DNA of 64,000 bases from Chloroflexota bacterium (GCA_027623195.1 JAQBUT010000006.1:32001-96000), one strand, 5' to 3'; positions 2,685 to 32,394 are shown, numbered from the stretch's first letter. Made by a program: numbers and translations. Notes: generated by a model not told the origin, from the sequence alone.

Positions 2685-3644
2685 CTAAGAAAACTCCGGG
2701 ACTACCTCGCTCAAGAACGTGTCCAATTGCGCTTGCTGATCCAGCGCGGCAAATCTTACTACGATGGTCTCTGCGCCAGCCTCGACGTACCGTTGCATGC
2801 GCTCAATCGTGCGCTCCGAGTGACCGTAGGGTCCCCAACGGTCGCCCCAGAAGTTCATGCCATAGTAGAGGTGTAAGAACTGGTTTGCCTCTGCGTCAGC
2901 CTTGGCCTCGTCGGCCTGCATATTGACCGTCATGTAGAAAGTGCGCTCCAGCTTGGACGGGTCCTTGCCATAGTCGTGGGCGTACCCCTGCACCTTTTCG
3001 ACTAACCTGGCGTACTCATCAGGGTAGTCAGAGATCGACATTATGCCGTCCCCCAACCTGGCCGCTCTTCGGAACTGGGCCTCGCGCCCCGTGTTCCAAT
3101 GACAAGCCACCAGAAAAGGCACTCCCCCCTTTTGCAAGGCGTGGGGCTGCACCCGGAGCGACTCAAAATCAAAATGCGCACCATGATGGGTTACGACCTC
3201 GCCAGCCGTCAGGCGCTTGGCGACGTCGACAACCTCTTCGAAGCGGCCGGCCCTTTGTTTGGGGTCCACGCCCGCGTTAAGCCACTCCTGACGCTGGTCT
3301 TCGTTGAAGGCGCCTCCTACGCCCGCGCCAATGATGGCCCGGCCGCTTGAGATGAGGTCCAGACTACCCAGCACGTGTGCCAGCGTAACCGGGTGCCGCA
3401 GGGCCGCCAGGAGTACCGACGTTCCCAACCGTACCCTCTTGGTGCGGGAGGCGATGGCCGCAAGGGTCGTCAACGGCTCCAATCTAGGCTTGGCCGTCAG
3501 GCTGTCGCCAACCCAGACCGAGTCCAGTCCCGCCTTCTCAACCTGCTCCGCCATAGAGAGCACAGTCTCGATATCCTGGGGGGCCTCGCCGGTCATTATC
3601 AGGCGTCGTGTGGGAAGGAGAACGCCAATCTTGACCTTAGTCAT
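2685..3644 (-). CDS. LLM-class (luciferase-like) flavin/F420-dependent oxidoreductase
   Basis: GLDSVWVGDS, LAAIASRTKRVRLGTSVL, LDLISSGR; overlaps cofC stop by 8 nt. Confidence 0.9.
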   Translation of the reverse strand: MTKVKIGVLLPTRRLIMTGEAPQDIETVLSMAEQVEKAGLDSVWVGDSLTAKPRLEPLTTLAAIASRTKRVRLGTSVLLAALRHPVTLAHVLGSLDLISSGRAIIGAGVGGAFNEDQRQEWLNAGVDPKQRAGRFEEVVDVAKRLTAGEVVTHHGAHFDFESLRVQPHALQKGGVPFLVACHWNTGREAQFRRAARLGDGIMSISDYPDEYARLVEKVQGYAHDYGKDPSKLERTFYMTVNMQADEAKADAEANQFLHLYYGMNFWGDRWGPYGHSERTIERMQRYVEAGAETIVVRFAALDQQAQLDTFLSEVVPEFS

Positions 3645-4341
3645 TCCCTTGTAATCCAAGCGGGTATTCCCTAGTTAGACTGGCCGATAGGTCGGACCAT
3701 CCAGTGAGCTTCCCGAGAAATCCGGGCTCTATTTCTTCGCATCGATTAAGGTCCGCCGGGGTATCCAGATCCAGGGAGAAGCCAGGGCTTTCGCAAACTG
3801 AATACGGCAATCCCAACGCCTGCGCCAGGTCCTGGTGGCGTCGAAAACTGTCCTTGCCTAGGGCAGGGCGAAACCCCGAACTAGCGGGCACAAACATCGC
3901 GTTGGTCCCGGCATCGCGTTGAGCGGGGGCCAACGCCAGTTTTGTTCCAGCCTCCGAGGCCGTTAACAGGGCCACGATATCGCTGGACTGCAGGAAAGGC
4001 AGGTCCGCCGGCAGGTACAGGCTCGGCAGGTCAACCTCGTCTGCCGCATTCATGGCATTGGATACGGCGTCATTAAGGCCCGTTCCAAGGTCTTCGTGCC
4101 ACTGCGCGCCCAGTTGCCGTGCACGCTCTCGCACCTGATCATCTCCGCCGATTACCCATATTCCGGTTACGGCCGATTCCATGGCTACCTTTACGACGTG
4201 CGAGAACATGCCCATGGCCAGCGCAGCCCTTGAACCGGAGTCTAGCTCTTTAGACAGGCGCGACTTGGCAAGGTGCAGGGGTTTCATGGGAATTAACACC
4301 GTTACGTGCAGGTCCCCGCTAATAGAGGAAATATTCATCAC
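3637..4341 (-). CDS. cofC: 2-phospho-L-lactate/PEP guanylyltransferase (F420 biosynthesis)
   Basis: IPMKPLHLAKSRLS, LPADLP, GTNAM, DLDTPADL; adjacent to cofD. Confidence 0.92.
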   Translation of the reverse strand: MMNISSISGDLHVTVLIPMKPLHLAKSRLSKELDSGSRAALAMGMFSHVVKVAMESAVTGIWVIGGDDQVRERARQLGAQWHEDLGTGLNDAVSNAMNAADEVDLPSLYLPADLPFLQSSDIVALLTASEAGTKLALAPAQRDAGTNAMFVPASSGFRPALGKDSFRRHQDLAQALGLPYSVCESPGFSLDLDTPADLNRCEEIEPGFLGKLTGWSDLSASLTREYPLGLQGND

Positions 4342-5267
4342 GTCAGCTCGCAGATGAAGTGTGCAAGCCTGACTTTATCATCGTAAGTGCTCATAATGGT
4401 ATTAGTGATCTCAACCTTCATTCCCAACTGCTCTATTTGCAGAGCCAGGTGACGGTCCTGCTCATCGATGACAAAAACGTCACAGAGGCCCACGTATTGC
4501 CGGGCGACGCCAACGCAGGAGACGTCATGCCCCAATTCACGTAAAAGTTTTGCCGCCGGTCCCTTGATAGCCTGCCCCCCAACGATGGGGCTTACGGCAA
4601 CCCTCCTGCCTTGGAAGCTTTCAATTGCCTTTTGCACCCCTTGAACGGCCAGTATGGGTGCCACGCTAATGAAGGGATTGGACGGGCAGAAAACCAGCGC
4701 CTCGGATGTCGCCAAGGCGGTAGCGAATGCTGGCGAAGGCCGTGCGTCATCGGCTCCTACGAACCTGATATGGGATACGACAGGCTCGCTGCGATTTTGA
4801 ACGAAGTAGGTTTGCATAGCAAGGTCGCCCATGTCGGTGGACAGCACGGTACGCACGCTGTCGTCGCTCATGGGGAAGACCGCGTGTCGCACGCCAAGGG
4901 CGGTACACAGCGATTGCGTGACCTGCGAAAGCGCCTGGCCCTGGCTAAGCAGGTGGGTACGCCGTATGTGAGTGGCAAGGTCCAAATCCCCCAAATTGAA
5001 CCAGGCGTCGGCTCCGTACTGTCGAAGACGCTCGAGCGTGCGGAAGCTCTCGCCTTCAATGCCCCATCCCATCTCAGTATTGGAAATGCCAGCAAGCGTA
5101 TACATCACCGTATCCACGTCGGGCGAGACGTGCAGGCCGTGGAACTCCTCATCGTCGCCGGTATTGACTACGATGGAAAGTTGGTCCGGTTCCAGCACGC
5201 CACATAGGCCAAGAGCCAGCTTCGCCCCGCCCACGCCGCCTGCCAGTGCCAGGATGGGAGTCTTCAA
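4338..5267 (-). CDS. cofD: 2-phospho-L-lactate transferase (F420 biosynthesis)
   Basis: LAGGVGGAKL, VNTGDD, SPDVDTVMYTLAG, WFNLGDLDLATH, PSNPFIS, KGPAAK; start uncertain (TTG 5267 chosen, ORF open to 5369). Confidence 0.95.
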   Translation of the reverse strand: MKTPILALAGGVGGAKLALGLCGVLEPDQLSIVVNTGDDEEFHGLHVSPDVDTVMYTLAGISNTEMGWGIEGESFRTLERLRQYGADAWFNLGDLDLATHIRRTHLLSQGQALSQVTQSLCTALGVRHAVFPMSDDSVRTVLSTDMGDLAMQTYFVQNRSEPVVSHIRFVGADDARPSPAFATALATSEALVFCPSNPFISVAPILAVQGVQKAIESFQGRRVAVSPIVGGQAIKGPAAKLLRELGHDVSCVGVARQYVGLCDVFVIDEQDRHLALQIEQLGMKVEITNTIMSTYDDKVRLAHFICELT

Positions 5268-5420
5268 TTCGAGTTCCGCAAAGTAGTATTCCTCTTGCCG
5301 CCACAATATCCGCCACAATCCATGTCTCGTGCCGGGCACTGGGGTTAATAGACCGAACAAATGTAACACCTATGCTAAAATCGTGGCAATACAGGGGCAG
5401 AACCATAGAGAGGTCCTCGC

Positions 5421-6635
5421 ATTTACATCAGCCACCTGAGCCTTCTGAACTTCCGCAACTACGAGCACTTGGAACTGGATTTGAAACCAGGAATGGTGCT
5501 GTTTCAGGGCGATAACGGTCAGGGCAAGAGCAACCTCCTGGAGGCCATATACATGCTCGCCGTGGCCAAGTCGCCCAGGGCGTCATCCGACCGTGAGTTG
5601 GTCAAACGGCAACTTGTGGACGAGGAGACATACTCCCGCGTGGCCGCCATTGTAGAGAGGGGAATCGAACATGGAGGCGGCCCCCTGAAGCTGCAGATGG
5701 ACTTCAGCAGCACTCCTATCCCTACCGAGGACGAGGACGACAATCTCGGCTCCATCGGCGGAATATCGGTGCAGAAGTACATTCGGATTAACGGCGTGCC
5801 TCGTCGCGCCTCCACTTTAGTCGGCCAGCTAAACGCAGTAATGTTTAGCGCGGAGGATTTGGAGCTGGTTTACGGCCCGCCTTCGGTACGCCGTCGCTAT
5901 ATGGATATTCTCATCTCTCAGTTGGACCAGAATTACCTGCGGGCCCTTCAACGCTACCAGAGGGTCATCACACAGCGAAACTCGCTATTGAAAGCCATTC
6001 GCGAAGGCCGATCAGCAGAAGGGGAACTGGCCTTCTGGGACGAGCAACTGGTGAGCGAGGGAGAGTACATAATTGGCCAACGCCGTGCCTGTATACAGCA
6101 GCTTTCAGAGATGGCCGGGCCTATTCAGCGAGGGCTAAGTGGCAACGGCGAGTCCATGGAAATCATCTACCAACCCAACGTCAGCCTGGGCAACGGCGAC
6201 GACGAGGGAGGCATTGCCGAATCAATGCATCGGTCCCTCCTGGAGAGACGCCGCCGAGAATTAGCCCAAGGCGTCACGGTTACAGGGCCACACCGCGACG
6301 ATTTGATAATGTTGTTGGACGGTATGGACGTGGGAGCCTACGCGTCTAGAGGACAGTCGCGAACGGTGGTGCTGGCCATGAAGCTGGCCGAGGCTGGCTA
6401 CCTGAAAGAGCGTCGCGGGCAGGAGCCGATTCTTCTATTGGACGACGTTCTTTCCGAGCTTGATGTCAGACGACGTGAGCATGTGCTGGACCAGGCATCC
6501 CAATATCAACAGAGCTTTCTCACTACTGCGGAGGTAGACAGCATCGACGCTGCCCACCTGTCAGGTATGAATCGGTTTGCCGTAAAGTCCGGGCATGCGG
6601 AGCCGATGGGGTCTACAACGGACGTCATCGACTAA
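5421..6635 (+). CDS. recF: DNA replication and repair protein RecF (probable ATT start)
   Basis: N-terminus (I)YISHLSLLNFRNY, Walker A GDNGQGKSN, GPHRDD, ASRGQ, LLLDDVLSELD. Confidence 0.96.
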   Translation: MYISHLSLLNFRNYEHLELDLKPGMVLFQGDNGQGKSNLLEAIYMLAVAKSPRASSDRELVKRQLVDEETYSRVAAIVERGIEHGGGPLKLQMDFSSTPIPTEDEDDNLGSIGGISVQKYIRINGVPRRASTLVGQLNAVMFSAEDLELVYGPPSVRRRYMDILISQLDQNYLRALQRYQRVITQRNSLLKAIREGRSAEGELAFWDEQLVSEGEYIIGQRRACIQQLSEMAGPIQRGLSGNGESMEIIYQPNVSLGNGDDEGGIAESMHRSLLERRRRELAQGVTVTGPHRDDLIMLLDGMDVGAYASRGQSRTVVLAMKLAEAGYLKERRGQEPILLLDDVLSELDVRRREHVLDQASQYQQSFLTTAEVDSIDAAHLSGMNRFAVKSGHAEPMGSTTDVID

Positions 6636-6681
6636 TACGGTAGCTCAAAGACTTTCGACACTCCCATACAATCATCTTTTC

Positions 6682-7221
6682 TTAACGTAATTGCGCGGCG
6701 AATTTTTCTCGAAACTTTTTCATTTTCGGGTCGATCACGATTCGGCAATACATGCTGTCGGGGTTTTCCATGTAGTACTGCTTATGTTCGGCCTCGGCTT
6801 CGTAAAACTTCTCTAGCCGAACGATTTCCGTTACTACCGGCCCGCCCAAACCGCCAGATTCATTTAATTCACCCACAAAGGCCTCCGCCAGCTGTTTCTG
6901 GTCATCATTTGTGTAAAGAATGACAGAGCGATACTGGGTGCCCTGGTCCGCTCCCTGACGGTTGAGCGTCGTTGGGTCGTGGGTGGCAAAGAATACAGTC
7001 AGAAGGTCCCTAAAGGCTATTTCGGAGGGGTCGAACTGGACTCTAGACACCTCGGCATGTCCAGTCGTCTCACTACATACCTGTCGATATGACGGATTTT
7101 CAGTGTGCCCTCCGGCATAACCAGGGGTAACTGAGACTACGCCTTTAAATTCGGCAAACACCGCCTCGGTACACCAGAAACATCCCCCGCCAAATACGGC
7201 AACCTCGTTATTATTTTCCAT
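6682..7221 (-). CDS. msrA: Peptide methionine (S)-sulfoxide reductase
   Basis: GGGCFWC, GYAGG, TGHAE, HDPTTLNRQGAD, QYRS. Confidence 0.97.
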   Translation of the reverse strand: MENNNEVAVFGGGCFWCTEAVFAEFKGVVSVTPGYAGGHTENPSYRQVCSETTGHAEVSRVQFDPSEIAFRDLLTVFFATHDPTTLNRQGADQGTQYRSVILYTNDDQKQLAEAFVGELNESGGLGGPVVTEIVRLEKFYEAEAEHKQYYMENPDSMYCRIVIDPKMKKFREKFAAQLR

Positions 7222-7599
7222 AATATTTCCCCATCAAATTTGTCTTGGGGCATATTGTAGCAGGCCTAACTAAGGTACCGCGCCACGAGATATTTCCTTC
7301 TATAAGCCTGACTAAACTCAATAAGCACCCCAAGCACCCTTTGACCGTCGCGAAGGGGCCGAAAGTAAAAGGAAGGTGTCCGGTACATCTTGACGTTTGT
7401 GCAGCCCGCCAAACACGATGAAATGCGCCTTCTTAACCCCCGCCTTCGGTACACCAGGGCCAACCCTTTGCAATTAATGAACTAACCCTTAGCCTCTGGC
7501 TTAGAATCCGGTGCATTTATCCCGTTACACCACTTTGTAAAGGTATGCATGGGGTGTGCGGATGGTGTGCTGGCACGTAGTTTATTCGGGTTAACACCG

Positions 7600-7629
7600 T
7601 TGTCTACCCTGCCAAACCCTACCTATAAT
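7600..7629 (+). promoter_or_regulatory. sigma70-type promoter of the large regulator
   Basis: TTGTCT-18nt-TATAAT, 48 nt before ATG 7678. Confidence 0.55.
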
Positions 7630-7677
7630 TAGGCCTACAATTAGCTCAGGAAAATCGTTAAGCACACCGGCTCAAAC

Positions 7678-10600
7678 ATGGAACAGGCAAGATTTTCAAA
7701 TAACCCAAAATACACCGTCCCAGAACCTCGCTCTGCTGTGGTTCGAAGACAGCGTCTGGTCGATTTTCTACATCAAAACGTCGACCAGCCCCTGCAACTC
7801 ATCTGCGCGCCTGCCGGTTACGGCAAGACCACCCTCATGGCAGACTTTGCGGCAGACACCGAGCTTACTGTTTGTTGGCTCGCGGTTGATGAGTTGGACA
7901 GGGACCCCAGGTCCTTTGCCACCAGCCTGTTCGAGGCTCTCCATACGCGTTTTCCCAACCTGGAAAACCCGGCGAAACTTGTGCAGGCCATGTCCCAGGA
8001 GGCCAACGCCGACTGGCAGACGATGATCCACAGCATTGTGGATGGCATTAGCAAGGGCATACCCGAGTATTTCATCTTCGTCATCGATGATTTTCACATC
8101 GTATCGTCCAGTCCTGAGGTGCATGATGCGCTAGATTTTGTCCTTCAGCGCCTGCCGGACAACTGTCGAATAATCCTGTCTACCAGGGAACTGCCACAAA
8201 TAGCGTCCCTACCCAAGTTAATAAGTCAACGTAGCGTTGCCGGGCTTGGGCCAGGAGAACTGAAGTTCACCTCGGACGAGATCAAAGACCTGCTTAAGAA
8301 GCACTTCGACCTGGAGGTTAGCGACGAGGAAGCCAAGCGTATGGAGCAGGAATCGGAAGGCTGGATCACGGCCATCCTGCTCACCACCCACAGCCTTTGG
8401 AAGGGCCTATTCCAGGAGGTCCTAAGTAAGCAGGGCGAAAATACACTTCTGTACGAGTACATGGCCTCCGAGGTTTTCTCCCAGCAACCGATGGTAATTC
8501 AGGACTTCCTCCTGGCGACAAGCATTTTCAACGAGTTCGACGCGGAGTGCAGCAGGGCAGTCACTGATTCCGATAACGTGGAGGAAATTCTTAAGGAGAT
8601 CGAAGGAAGGAACCTGTTTGTCTCCCGCATAGAAGGTGCAAAGCCATGGTTCCGGTATCACCATCTATTCAGGGACTTTCTCAGAGACAAAATTGCTACT
8701 GAAGACCCAGCGCGTCAAATTCAGCTCCACGCCAAGGCAGCCGACTACCACCTTCAGCGGGGCGACGTAAGACAGGCCATACACTTCAACATCGTGGGCC
8801 ACAGGTATGATGAGGCTCTAGACCTATTGGAGGATGAGGTAGAATCCCTTGCCCGTGAAGGCTTGTGGGACACCTTGGGCGGAATGATAGAGCAGATTCC
8901 CGAGGAGTTTCGCGAACGCAGGTCGAGGCTTCTTCTCTATTTTGCCAATTACCACGAACACAGAGGAAGAAACGACGAGTCGATCAAGATCCTTAGCCGA
9001 ATAATTGAGGTCTTTCGGGAGGAAGGGAACTATGTCCTGGAGTCCAGGGCCCTGATGCGACGCAGTGTCGCACTTCGGGCAAAAGGGGCCAGCCAGATGG
9101 CCGTAAGGGATGCCCGCATGGCCCTTTCCATTACGATCGAGTATGGCAGTCTCCGGGATCAGGCTGACGCCCACAGCCACCTGGGCCGGGCGTACGGAAC
9201 TCAGGGCAAATTCCCTATGGCCGAAGAGGAATGCAAGCTGGCATTGGAAGGATATCAACAGGAAGGCGATCTTTTCCAGCTATCCCATACCCACGGAATG
9301 CTTGGCCTCGCATACACTGAGATGGGTCAATTCCCCCAGGCTGCAACTCATTACGAGATGGCAGTCCAGGGCTGGAAGAAGATCGGCAACGAACGCGACC
9401 TCGCGCTCACCCTGGGCAACGTAGCGTGCCTCTATTACCAGCAGGGACGATACGATGAGGCAGTGGAAACCGGCAACGAATCTTTGGAAAAGGCTGTGGC
9501 GACAAATAACGTGCGTACCCAATCTTACGCATACGCCAATCTGGGAGACGTGCGTCGAGAGCAGGGCGCGTTTGGAGTTGCCTTGGGCCACTACCAGAAG
9601 GCGCTGGATCTAGCCAGAGAATGCACCTTGGCCCCCATGGTAAGCTACTGCAGCATCAACATGGGCGAGACTTATCGGCTGATGGGAGATAAGTTGAGGG
9701 CGAAAGGGCTTCTTAAGGAGGGCCTATCGTTAGCCAACGACCTTGACCTGGAGAATGAACGGGGCCTGGCGTACACGTCCCTGGGCATAATAGAGGCTGC
9801 CAGCGGTAACACCGACGAAAGCATTACGGTTCTGGATAGGGCGTGTGAGTTGCTGCAGCGCGCCAATCAAAAGCGGAACCTTGCGCTGGCTAAATTCCAC
9901 ATGGCACACGTATTTTTCCAGACCAAGAACTATGACGCCGCATTGGAGTACCTGGAACAGGTTGCGTCCCTCTGTCAGGATTTAGGTCACGTTCAGTTCC
10001 TCCTGGAAGATGCCAAGCATGCGTCATTAATGTTGCAGTACTTGGCCGCCTCCGATGGCAATTTGCGACAGTTCTTCAACGACATCAAAGACGAAATCAG
10101 CAGACAGTCCGACGGTAATTCCCCAGCAGCCAACGCCTACCTCGATCCCGAAGAACTCCCGATCAATGGCTCATCTAATGAAGAAAGCGACAGCCCTACG
10201 GAAATAGAGGTAAAAGGGTTTGGACAATTAAGGATTTACCTGGGAGGAAATCCAATCCTGAATTCCGCTTGGGGTTCCAGCAAGGCCCAAGAGATGTTCC
10301 TTTATATGCTTCGACTGAGGGAGCCTGCCTCCAAGGCAGATATCATGGAGGCGCTATGGCCTCACATTTCAGCCTCTAAGGCAAACTCCAATTTTCATTC
10401 CACCTTGCACAGAATGAAATCGGCTCTGCACCCTCAATGTGTGGAAGCCAACGGCGAGCTATACCAGATGAATCCTAACTGGGGCTACACTTTCGATGTC
10501 GGCTCCTTCGAGGAGACCATACTCAATGCCCGGAATCTGGCCAGCAATAACCCCGAGCGAATTCTGCTTCTGTCACAAGCTGTGAAGGCCTACAAGAACC

Positions 10601-10929
10601 CGGTACTCGGAGACACTGATGCAGCCTGGTGCAATCAGCTTCGGACGGAACTGGAAACGGCGTTCTGGCAAGCTGTGAACGAACTTTCGGACTCCTGGAA
10701 GGCAAGCGGAAATGTAGCGCAGAGCTTATCCATTTTGGAAGAAGCGCTGGAAGTGGACGAATACCAGGAGGAGATATACCACAAGCTGGCCGATCTTTAC
10801 ACAGAAGCTGGCGACCTTGCTTCAGCCTCTAGCACACAACGACGGTTGAAATCGATTTTCGGAGAAACAATCCAGCTATTTGCCGCTTCAGGCGGCACGT
10901 CAGATGCGGCAGACTCCGAAAAACATTAA
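7678..10929 (+). CDS. MalT-like STAND ATPase + TPR repeats + C-terminal SARP-like (winged helix/BTAD) transcriptional regulator
   Basis: Walker A APAGYGKTT, Walker B FVIDDFH, SEGW, WFRYHHLFRDFL; many TPR-like repeats (e.g. YANLGDVRREQGAFGVALGHYQKAL); C-terminal VKGFG..W.SSKAQEMFLY..IMEALWP..FHSTLHR..FDV..FE. Confidence 0.85.
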   Translation: MEQARFSNNPKYTVPEPRSAVVRRQRLVDFLHQNVDQPLQLICAPAGYGKTTLMADFAADTELTVCWLAVDELDRDPRSFATSLFEALHTRFPNLENPAKLVQAMSQEANADWQTMIHSIVDGISKGIPEYFIFVIDDFHIVSSSPEVHDALDFVLQRLPDNCRIILSTRELPQIASLPKLISQRSVAGLGPGELKFTSDEIKDLLKKHFDLEVSDEEAKRMEQESEGWITAILLTTHSLWKGLFQEVLSKQGENTLLYEYMASEVFSQQPMVIQDFLLATSIFNEFDAECSRAVTDSDNVEEILKEIEGRNLFVSRIEGAKPWFRYHHLFRDFLRDKIATEDPARQIQLHAKAADYHLQRGDVRQAIHFNIVGHRYDEALDLLEDEVESLAREGLWDTLGGMIEQIPEEFRERRSRLLLYFANYHEHRGRNDESIKILSRIIEVFREEGNYVLESRALMRRSVALRAKGASQMAVRDARMALSITIEYGSLRDQADAHSHLGRAYGTQGKFPMAEEECKLALEGYQQEGDLFQLSHTHGMLGLAYTEMGQFPQAATHYEMAVQGWKKIGNERDLALTLGNVACLYYQQGRYDEAVETGNESLEKAVATNNVRTQSYAYANLGDVRREQGAFGVALGHYQKALDLARECTLAPMVSYCSINMGETYRLMGDKLRAKGLLKEGLSLANDLDLENERGLAYTSLGIIEAASGNTDESITVLDRACELLQRANQKRNLALAKFHMAHVFFQTKNYDAALEYLEQVASLCQDLGHVQFLLEDAKHASLMLQYLAASDGNLRQFFNDIKDEISRQSDGNSPAANAYLDPEELPINGSSNEESDSPTEIEVKGFGQLRIYLGGNPILNSAWGSSKAQEMFLYMLRLREPASKADIMEALWPHISASKANSNFHSTLHRMKSALHPQCVEANGELYQMNPNWGYTFDVGSFEETILNARNLASNNPERILLLSQAVKAYKNPVLGDTDAAWCNQLRTELETAFWQAVNELSDSWKASGNVAQSLSILEEALEVDEYQEEIYHKLADLYTEAGDLASASSTQRRLKSIFGETIQLFAASGGTSDAADSEKH

Positions 10930-10950
10930 TTAACTCCCGAACATACCTCC

Positions 10951-11004
10951 AAAAAACTTGGCCTTGCCAATGCGAATGTTGCATTAGCAAGGCCATTTCT
11001 TTTT
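10951..11004 (+). terminator. Intrinsic terminator after the regulator (possibly bidirectional)
   Basis: TGGCCTTGCCAATGC / GCATTAGCAAGGCCA 15-bp stem with one mismatch, followed by TTTCTTTTT and preceded by AAAAAA. Confidence 0.75.
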
Positions 11005-11105
11005 GTCCGAGGTTATTCGTGAGTGACATGCCAGTCGCAATTTGCTATCCTCCCCCTTATTCAGTCTAGCTACAATTTGGCTAGCGGAAAGGAGGAGGTT
11101 CTATT

Positions 11106-11210
11106 ATGAGGCTCAAGAAAGCTTACTGGCAGGTGCTATCCGTGGCTCTCACGGTTGGCGCTTTGTTGGTTCTCACACTAGGGACCGCCCTTGCCGGCAA
11201 CTGGGACTAG
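11106..11210 (+). CDS. 34-aa small exported or membrane peptide MRLKKAYWQVLSVALTVGALLVLTLGTALAGNWD (putative signalling propeptide)
   Basis: RBS AAGGAGGAGGT at 11089-11099; basic n-region, long hydrophobic h-region, A-L-A motif then GNWD-stop; below the ORF-track length cutoff. Confidence 0.85.
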   Translation: MRLKKAYWQVLSVALTVGALLVLTLGTALAGNWD

Positions 11211-11605
11211 TTTAAAATACTAGCCCTAGTTTACCGGTCGCAACATGCCGGGGTTTCGGAGCCGCCACAGCAACGTGATCCCCGTTTGTCCAAACACATA
11301 TAAACATTTATGCCACCCCTTAAACATCTGCCAATCCCCTCGACCTATCGGCGATTGCATTTAACCCCTTAGGGCACAAGCATCTGTCAGTTGCAAAAAT
11401 CAACTTTCAGCCCCAGATTGTAAGCACCAATAACCTTGTTGCCTTGCCCCTTATTTATGATAACCGGAGCCTGTTAAAACCATAGTAGTTCGTTAAGTTT
11501 CGACGCCTGTAATAAGGTTTAGTTGGCAAATACACACCAGTCAAACCGGATCCTGGTTAGACTTAATTGCCTGTCAAATTTAGGCGGTCTCGGAGGCTTA
11601 CCACA

Positions 11606-12109
11606 TTGGTAAACGAAACGAACAATCGCAACGACAACCTGGCACGAAAATATGACCCACAGGTCACTGAGGTTGACGGCGTTCCGGGTCTTGATGATTC
11701 TACGATGCTCGACAAGTTTCTGTCGAAACTTTGCGACCACATCAAGAGTGAAGGGCTCGTTAGCCTTTACTGGGTTTCCGGGGTACGCACGGAGGAGGTC
11801 GCGAGCAACATTCTCAAGGCCATGGCAGAAGCGACCGGTGAATCCAACTTCGATGGCGACTCCTACGTCATCGTGGCGAAACCTGGAGATGCCGAGTTAC
11901 TCGATACCTTCAACTCCCAGTACAGCATCCGCATCCTACCCATGAACGAGATTTATGCCGACAGCTTTATTGTTGTTAACGAGTCCGCAGTCCTGGACGT
12001 GACCCCTATCGTTGGGGACGAGGGCAACCCGGAATTTAGCGAAGACCCCACGGTCGTCAGTCTTTACACGGGCTTTTTCAATATCCTTAAGAACGGCACT
12101 ACATCTTAG
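11606..12109 (+). CDS. Hypothetical acidic protein (167 aa)
   Basis: TTG start with GGAGG RBS at 11592-11596; followed by a strong terminator; C-terminal pattern weakly resembles TrmB/PLD-like domains. Confidence 0.7.
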   Translation: MVNETNNRNDNLARKYDPQVTEVDGVPGLDDSTMLDKFLSKLCDHIKSEGLVSLYWVSGVRTEEVASNILKAMAEATGESNFDGDSYVIVAKPGDAELLDTFNSQYSIRILPMNEIYADSFIVVNESAVLDVTPIVGDEGNPEFSEDPTVVSLYTGFFNILKNGTTS

Positions 12110-12141
12110 ATTCCTACCTCAATTTAATTATCGACTGCAAC

Positions 12142-12184
12142 ATAGAGGGCGACCCGCCGCGTTGGGGTCGCCCTCTATTTTTTT
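12142..12184 (+). terminator. Intrinsic terminator
   Basis: ATAGAGGGCGACCC / GGGTCGCCCTCTAT perfect 14-bp stem plus T-tract. Confidence 0.85.
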
Positions 12185-12440
12185 GTGGCTCCATTTAACA
12201 CACCACGTAAAACGGATCCCTGCTGCGCCCTTCCTATTTAACTCCCCAGCAACCTTTTCCCAGAAAGCTCGTTATATCTATAAGCGAAGGCTCACATTTT
12301 GTGCCTTTACGACAACCCCACCATTAATACTCTGGCGTCTGAATTTCGGTGCTTAGTGAAAGATCTAACCCCTATGCAGCCACGTATATTAAACAGCGGG
12401 GAATCCGGGAAGCCGTTTCCGGGTCCGGAGGCTGTGTGCC

Positions 12441-13034
12441 ATGGAGCATGAAGAAGCAGACGACGCACAACTGATTTCCCTAATAATGGAACAGTCACGG
12501 CCAGCGCTGGAAACCCTGTACCAGCGTTACTCCAATACGGTGTACTCCCTTGCGATGCATATGCTCCGGGATGCCGGCAAAGCAGAAGAGGTAACGCAGG
12601 ACGCATTTTTCAACGTCTGGCGAAGAGCAGGAAGCTATAGCACTAGCCGGGGAAGTGTGACAGCCTGGCTGTTCAGCATTGCGCATAATAGGACAATCGA
12701 CGAACTAAGGAAGAGGCGCCGGGATCAGACCCACGTTCGGCACGGCGTGGACCTTAGCAATAAGGCTGAGGAAGATAACAGCGGCGGGGACCCGATGCGC
12801 TACGCCACGCTTCAGTTCGACAAAAGCCAATTAAAGGACGCGCTTTTTACATTGAGGCCCGAGCAGAGAGAGATAGTTATATTGGCCTATTTTGGCGGTC
12901 TTACGCACTCAGAGATATCCCAGCAACTAGGCCAGCCCCTGGGCACAGTGAAGACACGTATGCGCCTTGCCCTCAAGAAACTAAGGTCCGTTTTGGGACC
13001 TCAATACCTGGAGCAAGCTGACATTGGAATGTGA
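12441..13034 (+). CDS. ECF RNA polymerase sigma factor (SigK-like)
   Basis: AEEVTQDAF..VWR, WLFSIAHNRTID, LAYFGGLTHSEIS, PLGTVKTRMRLAL. Confidence 0.93.
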   Translation: MEHEEADDAQLISLIMEQSRPALETLYQRYSNTVYSLAMHMLRDAGKAEEVTQDAFFNVWRRAGSYSTSRGSVTAWLFSIAHNRTIDELRKRRRDQTHVRHGVDLSNKAEEDNSGGDPMRYATLQFDKSQLKDALFTLRPEQREIVILAYFGGLTHSEISQQLGQPLGTVKTRMRLALKKLRSVLGPQYLEQADIGM

Positions 13035-13905
13035 ACGGGCGGATTCACTTCTACATCACTATTTTCTTGGCTCACTAAATGCCGATTTGGGCAAAAGCTT
13101 GGAGCGACATCTCGACGCCTGCGCCGATTGCGGCGAAAGGCTGAGTGCCTACGGCGAAACTGTTGCTCACCTGGCTCGTTCCGTACCTCAACATGAAGCT
13201 CGGGAGCGGATTCGACAGGCCCTGTTTAGCCGAATAGAGGGTGAAAACCGCGATCCGCAAGCAATCCTGTATTCCCAAATCTGGCGATTCGCAACTCTTT
13301 GGACGATGATAAAGACGACGTCCATTTCGCGGAACAGGGTAGGGGCAGCAAGCTTATTAGTAGGGATATTCTTACTGTTGGGTGTCTGGGTGAATCATAC
13401 CCAGGCTGGGGTTCCGCCTGGCGCTGAGATCGAGTCTCCACAGCAAGCGAGCCTTTCAGGCAGGGACAGCCGCTCAGAAGGCCGTCTGCTCGAGACCAGG
13501 GAAACGGCAACAGCAACTGCGGAACTGGTTAATGCCCAGAAGCCCTCGGTTTATGACAGCCTTGGCGTCACGCCAGCTTCCGGAATTTCGGTAAGCATGC
13601 TCACAGGGCCAGTAGTCGGGGGAACAGGGCCGAGAGGCGTGTTAATAGCGTCCGAGGGCAAAGCCATGCTCATGGCCTTGGACCTGCCCCCTCTTCCCAG
13701 CTACCAGGTCTACCAGATATGGCTGGTCCAGTCCGGCGGTGTAGTAGACGCAGGTCTCCTATCAGTGGATGCCACAGGTTATGGCCAGACGATCATCATT
13801 CCATACCTTTCGTTGGCGGAGTACGACGGCATTGGTATTACCATTGAGCCAGCAAGCGGGAGCCCAGACCCCACGGGCGTAAGCGTCCTCCAAGGTGACC
13901 TCTAA
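13024..13905 (+). CDS. Anti-sigma factor (RskA-like) with N-terminal HxxxCxxC zinc motif
   Basis: HLDACADC, one TM segment, C-terminal LPPLP..QVYQIWLV..GITIEP..GSPDPTG; overlaps the sigma gene. Confidence 0.88.
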   Translation: MECERADSLLHHYFLGSLNADLGKSLERHLDACADCGERLSAYGETVAHLARSVPQHEARERIRQALFSRIEGENRDPQAILYSQIWRFATLWTMIKTTSISRNRVGAASLLVGIFLLLGVWVNHTQAGVPPGAEIESPQQASLSGRDSRSEGRLLETRETATATAELVNAQKPSVYDSLGVTPASGISVSMLTGPVVGGTGPRGVLIASEGKAMLMALDLPPLPSYQVYQIWLVQSGGVVDAGLLSVDATGYGQTIIIPYLSLAEYDGIGITIEPASGSPDPTGVSVLQGDL

Positions 13906-14161
13906 CAACATGAATTGGTCACTTCCAAGAAATCAATGTAGCACTTTAATAATTTTGGTTTATCTACCACTATGCGGATCAATAGATAGACATACCAACG
14001 GGATGAACCGAACGACGGCGCGCATATTAGCGGCCACTCAAAATTCAATATTTTTGTGGTAAATTAGGTTCGTAAGGTCTATTCTGCATACACAGCGTGT
14101 GGTAGTGTTATTTGGGTACGCGGTCTACAGCTTTTTCAGCCAAGGAGGGAAGACACGTAGC

Positions 14162-15229
14162 ATGTCTAAATTACTCATCATCTTCGGACTTGTTCTATTA
14201 ATGACGGTCCCGGTTTCTCTGGCCCAGGCCCAGGTGCCTGCGCCAACATCGGCTGGTGCTCAGTACGAAGGCTCCGGTACAGCCGTCGTATCTGACAGCT
14301 CTGGCCTTAGCGACAAGATCACCTTTTCCATGACAGGGGTGACACGACCCGGACCGGATCAGACCTATGAGGGCTGGCTCGTCAACTCCACCACTGGTGA
14401 CATTCAAAGCACCGGTGTCATGAAAGTTGATGGCAGTAACAAAATCAGCCACAGTTGGGTTTCTCCTGACGGCGATAACCTTATTGAAATGTACAATTCG
14501 GTGGTTATCAGCGTTGAGCCCGTACCGGACTCATCTCCTGATTCGCCTTCGAGCATCAAGCCTTTCTCGGGCTCAGTTTCATCCGTGGCCATGACGCATA
14601 TTCGTCACCTACTGGTGAGCTGGCCGGAAGGATCAGATGCCGGCATTCTGACGAACCTAAACGGTCAAATAGACGTGGCAATACAGCACGTGAATCTGGC
14701 TCGCGGTTCCAGCACTATTGAAGGTGTTCTTACGCACACGCAGCACGTCATTAACGTAGTCGACGGTAGCGGCGGACCGAGCGATGGCATAGGTATCGTT
14801 GCCCATGCTAAGGACCGCTCCCACGCCGGACTGGCTGGTGCCTCCGTGGCTACAGAAGCCGCTAAGGTAGAAGCCGCTGGCGCCAACGCAGAAGCTTGGG
14901 CGCTAGAGGCCAAAGAGGCCGCTGAGAATGTTCTGGATCAGAGCAGCGTCACCATAGCCAAGGCGTTGCTTAACACGGTTGCCGGTCGACTGGATGCGGC
15001 AAGGAATGGCATCTCTGCGACAGGGCGGGGCGGCGGCGAACAGGCGTACGTGAGTGCCCAGATGATGGCGACTTACAGCCTTTCGTCCGGTGATATTGGA
15101 ACGCCTGCCACGGGTGACACCAGTATCCCCATGCTAGCTCAGATGCTCCTAGCGGGATCGCTCTCTCTGTTGGTAGCAGGTAGCTTCCTGTTCTACCGCA
15201 GCCGAAGGGTTAGCAGAGTAAGGGCTTAG
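14162..15229 (+). CDS. Secreted surface protein with RskA-like N-domain, His-rich helical region and C-terminal sortase-like signal
   Basis: RBS AGGAGG, signal peptide ending LAQA, C-terminal TPATGD + hydrophobic helix + RSRRVSRVRA. Confidence 0.8.
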   Translation: MSKLLIIFGLVLLMTVPVSLAQAQVPAPTSAGAQYEGSGTAVVSDSSGLSDKITFSMTGVTRPGPDQTYEGWLVNSTTGDIQSTGVMKVDGSNKISHSWVSPDGDNLIEMYNSVVISVEPVPDSSPDSPSSIKPFSGSVSSVAMTHIRHLLVSWPEGSDAGILTNLNGQIDVAIQHVNLARGSSTIEGVLTHTQHVINVVDGSGGPSDGIGIVAHAKDRSHAGLAGASVATEAAKVEAAGANAEAWALEAKEAAENVLDQSSVTIAKALLNTVAGRLDAARNGISATGRGGGEQAYVSAQMMATYSLSSGDIGTPATGDTSIPMLAQMLLAGSLSLLVAGSFLFYRSRRVSRVRA

Positions 15230-15257: not shown

Positions 15258-15301
15258 AGGAGACCCCATTTCATTAGTGAGATGGGGTCTCTTACTTTTT
15301 T
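15258..15301 (+). terminator. Intrinsic terminator
   Basis: GAGACCCCATTTCA / TGAGATGGGGTCTC stem plus T-tract. Confidence 0.8.
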
Positions 15302-15353
15302 GCGGTTTCGCGTTGTAGCATTGACGAAATCAAAGAGCCCAAAGGCCAACCCG

Positions 15354-16088
15354 ATGATTGCAAATATTTACGGTCTTAAATACGTAGTCCTCATGGCTAT
15401 CCTGCTGTCCATAAGCCTCTCCTGCAGCGGCCCGACCGGGGCAGGCCTATCAGACACAATAACCAAAGATGTCCTCACTCCCACCCCTACTCCGATCAAT
15501 CCCCAGGCCGTGTTGGACCAGTCCGGTACGGCCATGGCCAGCCTGGAGTCATTCCACTTCGATTTGCAACACAGCACCGGCGGAACACCCTTAGCAGCGA
15601 ACCTTTTATTGATCTCGGCTGAAGGCTACGTGGAAAAGCCGGACAGGCTGGCGGTAGAATTCACAGGCTCCGTTGGGAGATTCGCCATGCGTGGCAGTCT
15701 GATCACTATTGGCGACCGGACCTTCATGACCAATCCCTTGAACGACGAATGGCAAGTATTGCAGGACCAGGTAAGCCCCCTGGCGTACTTCGATCCTGCA
15801 AAGGGGATTTCCAGCATGATGTCGCAGGTAACTGCCCCTACTCTTTTGGCAATTCACAGCAAAGAGGTCCACATTGGCGGGCGCCTTCCCGCCACGGCTC
15901 TATCACCTCTGTTCGGCCCAACTGCAGACGGTTCTATTGATGTGGAGATGACCATAGACCTAAGCGAGTCTTACCTAACGAAAATCATGCTCGATGGACC
16001 AGTCACAGAAACCGAGATGGCCGGCGTCGTACGCACTATTGTGCTAGACCAGTTCAACGAGCCTACGTCGATAGAGCCCCCGCAATAA
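15354..16088 (+). CDS. LppX/LprAFG-like lipoprotein
   Basis: Lipobox-like ISLSC; AMASLESFHF, TNPL..W, FDPAKGI, FNEPTSIEPP end pattern; start ATG 15354 chosen because the upstream ATG lies inside the terminator. Confidence 0.72.
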   Translation: MIANIYGLKYVVLMAILLSISLSCSGPTGAGLSDTITKDVLTPTPTPINPQAVLDQSGTAMASLESFHFDLQHSTGGTPLAANLLLISAEGYVEKPDRLAVEFTGSVGRFAMRGSLITIGDRTFMTNPLNDEWQVLQDQVSPLAYFDPAKGISSMMSQVTAPTLLAIHSKEVHIGGRLPATALSPLFGPTADGSIDVEMTIDLSESYLTKIMLDGPVTETEMAGVVRTIVLDQFNEPTSIEPPQ

Positions 16089-31056: not shown

Positions 31057-32394
31057 CTACCGCACACGCTGCACGACGCGGCGGATGGCATCGACTAACT
31101 CGTCGACCTCGGCCTCGGTGGTGAGCGCGCTGAGGGCGCCGTGGCAGGCTGCCTGCAACAACACTCCTTCGTTCAGCAGGCCGGTGAAAACTGCCTTCTG
31201 CATTGTGTGGTCACTGCGCACTACATCTCTATAGTTCACAACCTCGTCGGCGGTGAAGTGCATCCCAAACATGGAGCCGATACCTGTCACCTGCACATCC
31301 ACCTCCAGTTCGTCGAAAACCGCCCGCAGCTTCTGTCGCAGCATCTCCCCCAAGGCGTTCATGCGATCGTATACCTCAGGCGTCAGGTGATTCATCACCA
31401 CTTCGCCCGCCAGCATCGTCATAGGATTGGCATTGAACGTCCCGGCGTGGGCCATGGCATCGCCCTTGGTAGGGTCGAACTGGTCCATGATGTCCCGCCG
31501 ACCTCCGAAGGCCCCCACCGCCATGCCGCCGCCTATTATTTTCCCAAAGGTCGTCATGTCCGGTATAACGCCGAACGCCTCCTGCGCGCCGCCAGGAGCC
31601 AGCCGAAAGCTCTGGACCTCATCGAAGATGAGCACCATGTCCAGTTCTTCGGTTATCTTGCGCATGCCCTGAAGATAGTCCCGCTTGCCGGGCAGGTATC
31701 CAAAGTGAGACACGATGGGTTCCATAATGACGCACCCAATCTCATCCTTGTGCTGGCGCAGAACGCGTTGGCTCGTCTCAAGGTCGTTGAACGGCAGCAC
31801 GAACACGTCCTCCGCGATGCTGGGCGGCTGACCCGCATGCTCGGGGATAGGCGTGGTCTCATTGGGGTCCAGCTTATCGGCGGACGGGTATACGCTGACG
31901 GATACGTACTCATGAGAGCCGTGGTAGCCGCCCTCAATCTTGGCAATTTTATGTCTGCCGGTGAAGGCCCGGGCCGCCCTGATGGCCATCATAGTGCCCT
32001 CAGTGCCCGAATTGGTGAAGCGTATGGTATCGACTGACGGCACCCGGTCGCACAGGATTTTCGCCAACCGAATCTGCGCCTCGGTGGGTCCGCTAAACGC
32101 CGTGCCTTTCGCCGCCTGCTCCTGCAAAACGCGAACAACATCGGGATGCGCATGGCCGAGGACCAGGCTAGTCGCGTTGATCATGAAATCCAGGTAGCGA
32201 TTGCCATCGACATCGTACACGTGCAGACCCTCACCGCGATCGACGAAAGTAGGGTAGGGCGCAAAGAAGGCGGTGCCCCTGGAGCTTCCGCCGGGCAGAT
32301 ACTCCGACGCCTCCTGCTGAAGCCGCTTGGAAGTCGGCGTGCTTGCTATGAACTTTTCGGTTTCGACGCGCAGGCTCTCGGTGGTCATCGGCAA
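31057..32394 (-). CDS. Class III aminotransferase, glutamate-1-semialdehyde aminomutase-like
   Basis: DVDGNRYLDF, RFTNSGTE, GGYHG, LIFDEV, FGKIIGGG, HAGTFNANP. Confidence 0.88.
   Translation of the reverse strand: MPMTTESLRVETEKFIASTPTSKRLQQEASEYLPGGSSRGTAFFAPYPTFVDRGEGLHVYDVDGNRYLDFMINATSLVLGHAHPDVVRVLQEQAAKGTAFSGPTEAQIRLAKILCDRVPSVDTIRFTNSGTEGTMMAIRAARAFTGRHKIAKIEGGYHGSHEYVSVSVYPSADKLDPNETTPIPEHAGQPPSIAEDVFVLPFNDLETSQRVLRQHKDEIGCVIMEPIVSHFGYLPGKRDYLQGMRKITEELDMVLIFDEVQSFRLAPGGAQEAFGVIPDMTTFGKIIGGGMAVGAFGGRRDIMDQFDPTKGDAMAHAGTFNANPMTMLAGEVVMNHLTPEVYDRMNALGEMLRQKLRAVFDELEVDVQVTGIGSMFGMHFTADEVVNYRDVVRSDHTMQKAVFTGLLNEGVLLQAACHGALSALTTEAEVDELVDAIRRVVQRVR

Follow-up and report, generated by a model that had tools for sequence, protein, structure and literature searches.

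Among the systems closest in design to the locus presented here, PrgQ/iCF10 and SHP are small products that are signal-like over nearly their whole length and whose C-terminal residues are the signal. To our knowledge, peptide signalling through cytoplasmic receptors is known essentially from Bacillota, their phages and plasmids. AfsS of Streptomyces coelicolor, the small partner in the AfsR-afsS system, is a hydrophilic cytoplasmic protein of 63 aa. The RRNPP signature, as given in one report, comprises a propeptide of 10–100 aa that is Sec-secreted or has an SHP profile and a receptor of 250–500 aa with TPRs, and the reference pairs have gaps of −50 to 191 bp (PMC10075063). According to another report, the known large SARPs consist of an N-terminal SARP, an NB-ARC domain and C-terminal TPRs, AfsR binds two direct repeats at the afsS promoter, and SARPs bind heptameric direct repeats with 4–15-nt spacers that overlap the −35 region, classically as 11-bp units and sometimes three of them (PMC10972967). 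Here we describe a regulator gene and an adjacent gene for a 34-aa peptide in a stretch of 64,000 nucleotides (the window; positions 32001–96000 of contig C24) from a metagenome-assembled genome of a Chloroflexota bacterium (GCA_027623195.1; 3.0 Mb, 65 contigs, 87% complete). The two genes form a conserved module that may be an undescribed peptide-signalling device.

The 34-codon open reading frame (ORF; 11106..11210, + strand) translates as MRLKKAYWQVLSVALTVGALLVLTLGTALAGNWD, that is, MRLKK, YW, a hydrophobic segment of ~22 aa, ALA and GNWD. It is a genuine gene under purifying selection, since it has 11 close homologues and pN/pS ratios of 0.18–0.46 in 10 pairwise comparisons. Synonymous sites are near saturation between genera (pS 0.64–0.78), and the closest pair, L074/L083, differs by seven synonymous changes and one non-synonymous change. 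A preliminary description of this DNA had proposed a 1083-aa regulator with a TPR array, a 34-codon ORF after a gap of 176 nt and a product of the form MRLKK-(hydrophobic)-ALA-GNWD; all of these were found in place, the gap being counted from the regulator's stop codon. In a ~99% identical strain represented by contigs of a second study, 17 letters and one deletion differ across 10600–12200, none of them inside the ORF, but this invariance is no test of selection because the ORF makes up only 105 of the 1601 bases. The peptide has no family in Pfam or NCBIfam, its top score in the ESM Atlas was 0.85 with unnamed clusters, and Rfam at E ≤ 1 over 6000–14000 returned a chance mir-22 as sole match.

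The regulator gene (7678..10929, + strand) encodes a MalT-type STAND NTPase, a TPR array and a BTAD. Its NOD (residues ~11–516) matches the NCBIfam MalT model over residues 11–516 (E 1e-73, under the equivalog cut-off) and the MalT structure PDB 8bob over residues 21–374 (E 1e-36); Pfam adds weak AAA_22/NPHP3_N matches at the N-terminus. In the TPR array (residues ~430–840), Pfam recognizes TPR_12 in five stretches (E 5.8e-40) and TPR_MalT with 74.3 bits (cut-off 45). The BTAD (PF03704) follows at residues 940–1060 with 34.1 bits (cut-off 22.1), and no GerE domain (LuxR-type helix-turn-helix) was found by Pfam. Between TPRs and BTAD lies a segment of ~100 aa (residues ~850–940), presumed to be a winged helix because SARPs have theirs at this place, that aligns with small BTAD proteins, in one of which Trans_reg_C was detected weakly (E 8.5e-4, below the cut-off). 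The SARP-like C-terminus is, by its domain content, the likely DNA-binding end. The window's genome holds one full-length copy of the regulator.

In a set of 40 related genomes, regulator orthologues were present in G002, of the same genus (65% identity; the gene runs off the contig), and in G004, of another genus (56%), and a small ORF lies downstream of both, with the tails GGWD and GSWD, respectively. Searching 301 genomes of the order with the peptide returned G004 again, G240 from another family (tail DGSDWG) and a second copy in the window's own genome. This orphan copy (L054; G000:C38:2033-2134, − strand) is 74% identical, ends in GDWD and has kept its Shine-Dalgarno (SD) sequence; it is flanked by an ORF that by eye resembles FMN-dependent dehydrogenases on one side and by tRNA-Val/tRNA-Arg on the other. 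Scanning a single genome for each species contributed L074 (tail DGPNWG) and also yielded L077, which has a truncated regulator and no peptide, the interrupter being by eye an IS21-type element. Scanning metagenomes with an alignment of the phospholipase D (PLD)-like protein encoded further downstream gave four loci, among them L081 as well as L084 and L083, the latter two being near-identical to the G004 and L074 types, respectively. Finally, a protein search with the natural 40-aa peptide of G240 gave five clusters, one being the query's own and one a longer call of another, leading to three further distinct peptides with the tails DGTDWG and GSDWG. When a peptide profile was run against 401 genomes of the class, only the two copies in the window's genome were convincing; the 16 others (E 6e-5 to 9e-3) were rejected as seemingly unrelated hydrophobic stretches inside larger frames. 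In six of the seven loci with visible upstream DNA, the peptide gene lies 168–184 nt 3′ of the stop codon of the orthologous regulator, the linked loci of this close subfamily being five assembled ones and L083. Transposase-like ORFs (IS5- or IS21-like by eye) interrupt the G240 cassette (L055:1217-2143 and 3493-4295) and truncate the regulator of L077 (L077:9030-11302).

The regulator's architecture is not a rarity: NOD-TPR-BTAD proteins are common in Chloroflexota and full-length homologues are widespread. In 200 of 401 Chloroflexota genomes, the search returned a match at E ≤ 1e-20; many matches are confined to the MalT-like N-terminal half, but dozens are full-length (~1050–1140 aa) with 24–34% identity. 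Around the 28 best distant loci, we scanned 700 nt downstream for ORFs of 25–55 aa that have an SD-like motif at most 18 nt from the start, reach a hydropathy of 2.0 or more over some 15-residue stretch and contain K or R in the first 20 residues. By these strict criteria, an SD-led ORF of 30–48 aa on the same strand, built of basic N-terminus, hydrophobic segment and short tail, occurs at 20 of the 27 loci with enough flank (26–34% identity), 80–500 nt downstream of the regulator. Relaxed criteria raise the count to 24 of 27 by adding L090, L107, L110 and L112. The strict scan found next to nothing in the controls: 1/27 for the opposite strand, 0/28 (same strand) and 1/28 (antisense) for upstream DNA, and 0/28 in each of two counts inside the gene. 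The outcome is thus the one that the preliminary description had expected from regulator homologues, namely small ORFs led by a ribosome-binding site downstream of most of them. The peptide-bearing distant loci span 13 GTDB families by hand count; no p-value is attached to the pairing because the relatives are not independent. Twenty shorter MalT cousins (872–941 aa) all end in GerE and in 18 cases carry TPR_MalT; of the 19 with enough downstream DNA, one is followed by a small ORF, and this is of a different build. Peptide pairing is conserved and specific to one regulator subfamily. At L155 (G715:C44), two identical tandem genes for a 38-aa peptide with the tail ...AFAGPAGGGGFGGG lie 177 and 353 nt past the regulator's stop codon.

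The peptide genes and the regions in front of them follow a conserved plan, in which terminator, repeats, −10 box, hairpin, SD sequence and ORF succeed one another. The terminator that had been reported between the two genes of the window is present at 10959..11006 (+ strand) as a hairpin with a 15-bp stem (10959–10995) followed by TTTCTTTTT. Our promoter/terminator scan lists this hairpin for the − strand only because an A-run precedes it, and with this 5′ A-run the terminator could work in both directions. Hairpins with a T-run precede the repeats in many homologous loci. In the window, the repeats are degenerate remnants with an 11-nt phase (11016..11034, + strand; TTCGTGAG at 11016–11023 and CATGCCAG at 11027–11034). 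When the loci are aligned by hand at the −10 box, these remnants fall where relatives have GTRAG repeats, 30–23 and 19–12 nt before the −10 hexamer. In G240, L074 and G004, the element xTxGT(G/A)AG stands 41–34, 30–23 and 19–12 nt before the hexamer, in an 11-nt phase and without a −35 box. The pattern GTRAG-N6-GTRAG is restricted to the peptide promoter in both L074 (two overlapping matches in 15 kb, 0.08 expected) and L055 (one match in 8 kb, 0.04 expected). Window and G002 have a −35-like GTGACA instead of clear repeats. It forms part of a promoter-like site in the window (11023..11051, + strand) that consists of GTGACA, 17 nt and TATCCT, with nine of 12 consensus matches and a TG before the −10 hexamer; positions 11043–11051, which contain TG and hexamer, read TGCTATCCT. 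TGnTAnnnT is kept in all five linked relatives.

Much the same arrangement recurs at the distant loci, most of which (of 23) have 2–5 direct repeats of 11–12 nt followed by TAnnnT, 60–90 nt before the ATG, usually with a hairpin and T-run on the 5′ side of the repeats and a leader hairpin on the 3′ side. The distant loci and the window's subfamily have TGTGAG-, TGGTAAG- and TGTAAG-type repeat cores in common; a group of 47-aa peptides has TTTTGAAGCCTG instead, twice. The leader hairpin of the window (11066..11084, + strand; CTAGC, 9 nt, GCTAG; 5 bp) stands just before the SD sequence and has a folding energy of −9.2 kcal/mol (z −2.49; 1 of 200 shuffles equally good). G002 (z −3.84) and G004 (z −2.58) have hairpins of other sequence at this position, as have, in weaker form, L074 (z −1.76), G240 (z −1.10) and the orphan copy (z −0.84). 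As the arms were misaligned in the MAFFT alignment, RNAalifold failed to retrieve the leader hairpin. The SD region (11086..11099, + strand) reads GGAAAGGAGGAGGT and ends 6 nt before the ATG at 11106; its AGGAGG core is common to six of six aligned loci and AGGAGGAGG occurs twice in the 64-kb window (0.52 expected). The strong ribosome-binding site noted at the outset is present as described. Since terminator, 11–12-nt phased repeats, −10 box and 5′ hairpin precede the peptide genes, the regulator probably activates them. Such a role as target, as read from the promoters, would suit a mere output of the regulator as well as an autoinducer loop. As a check on autoregulation, the regulator's own promoter region (near 7200–7700) was searched for GTRAG-N6-GTRAG with up to one mismatch, and none was present.

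In all peptides, a basic N-terminus leads into an uncharged core that is free of Pro and often has an aromatic residue at its edge; as parsed here, a tail of 1–17 residues follows. The core measures 12–28 residues (median 19, n = 32) and mostly 17–19 in distant members including the small-residue end, which is usually of the type ASGA or GAGA and is ALA in the window. The first residue of the tail is Pro in 20 and Asp in 10 of 32 peptides; since the core was by definition cut off at its first Pro, part of the Pro count follows from the parsing itself. Gly, Asp and Pro abound in the tails, which frequently contain Trp, Phe or Tyr. In the window's subfamily, the tail keeps the frame (D)G-x-(D/N)-W-(G/D) with an invariant Trp, and the most variable column among close relatives is the x of GxWD (N, G, S or D). 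A small-x-small motif in front of the tail is likewise kept there (ALA, AFA, ILA/VLA or IAA). Invariant in six sequences are M1, Y7, W8, L15, V17, G18, L20, A30 and W33. By eye, the 34-aa peptide has the basic n-region, hydrophobic core and ALA site of a signal peptide. Signal peptidase I tolerates small-x-small followed by (A/G)-P, and cores of 17–19 residues are signal-peptide-like; in our judgement the core lengths would be nearer to a signal peptide than to a stable anchor.

The best explanation of this build would be a peptide whose basic N-terminus stays in the cell and whose Trp-containing tail of four residues is outside, with one hydrophobic segment between them. Our preferred reading, to which we give a probability of roughly 40%, is that the peptide is processed, released and sensed by the TPR domain of the regulator, closing an autoinduction loop. 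Judging by how the repeats are arranged and by how SARPs are known to act, the activator would bind the phased direct repeats that replace the −35 of the peptide promoter and turn the gene on. The 5′ hairpin and the very strong ribosome-binding site of the message would ensure heavy translation. The peptide would then insert into the membrane, where a cut after small-x-small (ALA) or within the membrane may free a short tail: GNWD in the window, (D)GxDWG or DGPNWG in close relatives, and AP-led tails of 6–10 residues in most of the distant ones. By analogy with RRNPP systems, the tail would accumulate, be taken up and be read by the TPR sensor, the receptor being a different one. General machinery for such a loop is encoded in the window's genome (13 matches to family-5 peptide-binding proteins and three to signal peptidase I); it is necessary but not sufficient, and it is nearly universal. 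A complex prediction of TPR residues 345–845 with the full 34-aa peptide, run without controls, scored 0.02 against a mark of 0.32 and weighs neither way.

A number of observations speak against such a loop. Some concern the distribution of the pair. Even under relaxed criteria, three of the 27 nearest loci (L085, L089 and L106) have no peptide ORF, and among remoter full-length homologues (23–26% identity) only four of 20 carry one by the strict criteria, three of them family-like (L155, L172 and L174). Because the remoter homologues mostly lack the ORF, the pairing marks a subfamily of regulators and not all of them. The preliminary description had named the lack of adjacent small ORFs beside homologous regulators as an observation that would refute it; this lack is seen in most of the remoter homologues but not in the nearest ones, where 20 of 27 carry the ORF. 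The orphan copy lies on a contig (C38, 4.1 kb) without any regulator. On the metagenome contig L081 (60-160), the peptide gene has decayed beside an intact PLD-like gene by loss of the SD sequence, deletion of ~30 nt of the hydrophobic part, an in-frame stop and a change of Trp to Arg.

Other such observations concern the two proteins and the promoter. Peptide identities of 94% and 68% go with regulator identities of 64–65% and 56%. The hydrophobic segment is conserved beyond the need of a signal peptide, and both this segment and the YW on its cytoplasmic side are kept better than the regulator. The 47-aa group keeps a cytoplasmic motif, NRQH(I/V)Q, better than any other. From K5 to the ALA site there are 25 uncharged residues, and together with the conservation of the helix this could equally indicate a stable membrane anchor. 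As we read the sequence, W8 and W33 flank these ~25 residues much as they would in a stable membrane-spanning helix. A tetrapeptide would be shorter than any pheromone we know of. Pfam found no Trans_reg_C in regulator residues 840–951, which include the 850–940 segment; because the winged-helix segment is missed, the DNA-binding domain is treated here as inferred. GTRAG-N6-GTRAG has no match in the window even at one mismatch, and the repeats of G002 are degenerate too. The case for activator dependence is weakest for the window itself because its repeats are degenerate and a −35-like GTGACA is present.

Nearly as likely as the signalling loop is that the peptide is output only, a small single-pass membrane protein made in the style of AfsR-afsS while the TPR domain reads another cue and nothing feeds back; in relatives, the peptide could be a partner or substrate of DUF5317. 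The phased repeats at the promoter, the strongly conserved hydrophobic helix with aromatic residues at both ends and the precedent of AfsR-afsS itself all agree with this. So does the setting in relatives, where the peptide gene seems to open a regulated operon. We surveyed 20 distant loci of 11 kb each, with an ORF filter that may hide some DUF5317 genes (e.g. L128). A DUF5317 gene (PF17248) follows the peptide in 10 of them (L115, L116, L119, L125, L126, L127, L129, L130, L131 and L132). A gene resembling PF14407 (Frankia_peptide) is present in 6 of 20 loci, above the cut-off in L115 only, and proteins with HD_5 (HD-GYP-type) in 7 of 20; receiver domains are found instead in three of 20, and YcaO with an ABC transporter lies near L133. 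ECOD curators place PF14407 with NHLP/Nif11-like leader domains (PMC12353581). As calculated from the coordinates, the gap between peptide and DUF5317 is 3–45 nt in three loci, which suggests an operon. An operon with DUF5317, NHLP-like and HD-GYP-type genes suggests a role in a membrane complex or as output, and thus also counts against the loop. In L074, DUF5317 stands between the peptide and the PLD-like gene.

An output alone would leave unexplained why, amid variation at the tail's remaining residues, the small-x-small (or G-A-P) site and a short aromatic tail have been retained. In addition, many cores comprise 17–19 uncharged residues if the small-residue end is counted, which is less than one would expect of a stable anchor. 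Regulator and peptide also persist in the window's genome though PF17248 and PF14407 were not found there; as that genome is 87% complete, the absence of DUF5317 and PF14407 is not proven. Its single HD_5 match is on another contig. The window is a reduced form of the cassette, with DUF5317 and the NHLP-like gene not found, an ALA-GxWD tail, degenerate repeats and an orphan copy. As for DUF5317 itself, an alignment from 11 loci shows invariant N-G-G-x-M-P, K(D), L-x-D and (S)-x-G-D motifs with two invariant Asp. A dedicated peptidase was considered, and structure matches allowed no conclusion. The model (pLDDT 82.6) had no Foldseek match at E ≤ 0.001 and no informative match in the PDB, the top VIA-align match (Z 8.9) covering 72 residues of generic helices. 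The DUF5317 family search also gave matches in the control genomes of Thermus thermophilus and Thermotoga maritima.

Improbable, in our view, is a membrane tether or co-sensor, in which the N-terminus of the uncleaved peptide would bind the TPR domain and hold the regulator at the membrane, either as an anti-activator or as a relay of the envelope state. Because the regulator would drive the peptide gene, this arrangement would form a feedback loop, too. It would account for the high conservation of the cytoplasmic juxtamembrane residues, which are the best kept of all (YW in the window, NRQH(I/V)Q in the 47-aa group), and it has a parallel in MalT, which is held inactive by membrane-associated MalK. 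The cytoplasmic segment of the window's peptide, however, is only ~9 residues long, and the conserved external tail would be left unexplained.

Far less probable is a small membrane toxin, with a STAND regulator that would sense an invader or stress and induce a membrane-damaging peptide in abortive infection or as a type I toxin. STAND NTPases with TPR sensors do include antiviral sensors, the size and hydrophobicity of the peptide are like those of type I toxins, the SD sequence is very strong and a weak antisense promoter-like site (9/12 matches) lies at 11132–11103. Yet the locus is stable and syntenic across an order and sits among housekeeping genes, and the partner genes in relatives belong to cyclic di-GMP (c-di-GMP)-type signalling rather than to defence. 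The leader of a peptide natural product that is made on the ribosome and modified after translation can be all but dismissed, for although relatives' cassettes contain PF14407 (NHLP/Nif11-like leader) genes and L133 has YcaO and an ABC transporter nearby, the window encodes no maturase in the 8 kb to either side, its genome yielded no PF14407 match and the hydrophobic segment is, in our judgement, unlike known leaders. The remaining weight goes to other explanations.

Downstream of the peptide gene, a non-coding block at 11236..11290 (+ strand; CCGGGGTTTCGGAGCCGCCACAGCAACG...) is conserved in G002 and L081, and it persists in L081 although the peptide gene has decayed there. A terminator at 11236–11290 was considered and dropped, since the predicted fold is no better than that of shuffled sequences (z −0.04). 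A second conserved non-coding block, at 11495–11530, is common to the window, G002 and L081; neither block matches Rfam. The PLD-like protein gene (11606..12109, + strand), with a likely TTG start at 11606 and GGAGG 9 nt upstream, encodes a cytoplasmic protein of 167 aa and follows the peptide gene in every subfamily member in which downstream DNA was seen. The protein forms 10 clusters in 5.8 billion proteins and has no Pfam domain. Its model (pLDDT 77.8) matches Zucchini, TrmBL2, Nuc and TrmB in structure (E 1e-4 to 6e-3, TM ~0.5), while a sequence search of the PDB gave nothing below E 1. It lacks any invariant His or Lys, and with them an HKD motif, and is therefore probably not catalytic; the idea of an enzyme was rejected for the same reason. 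Further downstream, the gene of an extracytoplasmic function sigma factor (12441–13034) overlaps that of an RskA-type anti-sigma factor (13024–13905), followed by a second RskA_C protein (14099–15229) and an LppX/LprAFG-like lipoprotein (15282–16088). The sigma/anti-sigma pair is also found downstream of the cassette in G240 and L074, despite insertions. Upstream of the regulator, F420-related genes for CofD, a CofC-like protein and a luciferase-like monooxygenase (2685–5369, − strand) are adjoined by recF (5469–6635) and msrA (6682–7221).

The sensed cue of large MalT/AfsR-type STAND-TPR activators is mostly unknown, and the pair described here offers a concrete and testable candidate ligand. 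It extends across at least 13 Chloroflexota families, with a promoter layout that marks the peptide gene as a target of the regulator, and thus points to a possible communication system in a phylum for which none is described. A more general form of the idea is doubtful and, on balance, rather unlikely: a phylum-wide peptide communication of Chloroflexota in which a peptide of 4–10 residues, freed from a product that is nearly all signal sequence, would be read inside the cell by the TPR sensor of a STAND activator, which would then drive the gene of the peptide and, in the fuller cassettes, also DUF5317, NHLP-like and HD-GYP-type (c-di-GMP) proteins. If true, this would amount to a class of cytoplasmic peptide-pheromone receptors that is unrelated to RRNPP and lies outside Bacillota, with, for the first time, a STAND NTPase that is gated by a peptide of the cell's own making. 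If the peptide is output only, it would still be a new family of micro-proteins that gene callers often miss and that in relatives is linked to c-di-GMP-type signalling genes. The reduced form in the window shows the persistent core, a pair that is kept and still under purifying selection without a DUF5317 or NHLP-like gene having been found.

A literature search, with supplements outside its scope, found no description of the cassette; it also found no paper for DUF5317 or Franean1_4349 and none on RRNPP propeptides mentioning Chloroflexi. With the fuller regulator/micro-peptide/DUF5317 cassettes of Chloroflexota, the locus shares the regulator family, the style of the peptide and the phased-repeat promoter. 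It differs from them in the PLD-like protein that follows the peptide, in the ALA-GxWD instead of a G-A-P-x tail, in the degeneracy of its repeats and in the presence of an orphan copy. MalT/LAL regulators have the homologous N-terminal NOD, the TPR_MalT region and an ATP switch gated by a sensor domain in common with the regulator, whose DNA-binding end, however, is BTAD/SARP-like rather than GerE; for lack of a GerE domain, it is not a MalT/LAL regulator.

The preliminary description had likened the pair to RRNPP systems. The likeness stands insofar as a cytoplasmic TPR regulator lies beside a small gene whose product is nearly all signal-like, as in PrgX-PrgQ/iCF10 and Rgg-SHP: the peptide of 34 aa is within the range of 10–100, the receptor has TPRs and the genes are directly adjacent (176 nt). 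It fails in the receptor, which has 1083 aa with a STAND ATPase and a SARP end, whereas those of RRNPP systems have 250–500 aa and either a helix-turn-helix or no DNA-binding domain. RNPP_C reaches 18.8 bits in the regulator (Pfam cut-off 26.5), and the match to NprR chains comprises ~89 residues of generic TPR only (E 8e-7). The phylum is Chloroflexota here and Bacillota there. The pair is not a member of RRNPP, since receptor length and homology do not agree, but by analogy it could work in an RRNPP-like manner. AfsR-afsS of S. coelicolor similarly combines a large activator of SARP module, STAND-type NTPase and TPRs with a small gene directly downstream whose promoter has direct repeats. 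In contrast to AfsR, the domain order is reversed (MalT-type NOD, TPR, C-terminal BTAD), and the NCBIfam AfsR model matches the TPR part of the regulator only (54 bits, cut-off 1430). As the order is reversed and the NOD is MalT-type, this is not a classical large SARP, and its partner is a hydrophobic peptide of 34 aa, unlike AfsS. The genetic logic of the locus is closest to that of AfsR-afsS.

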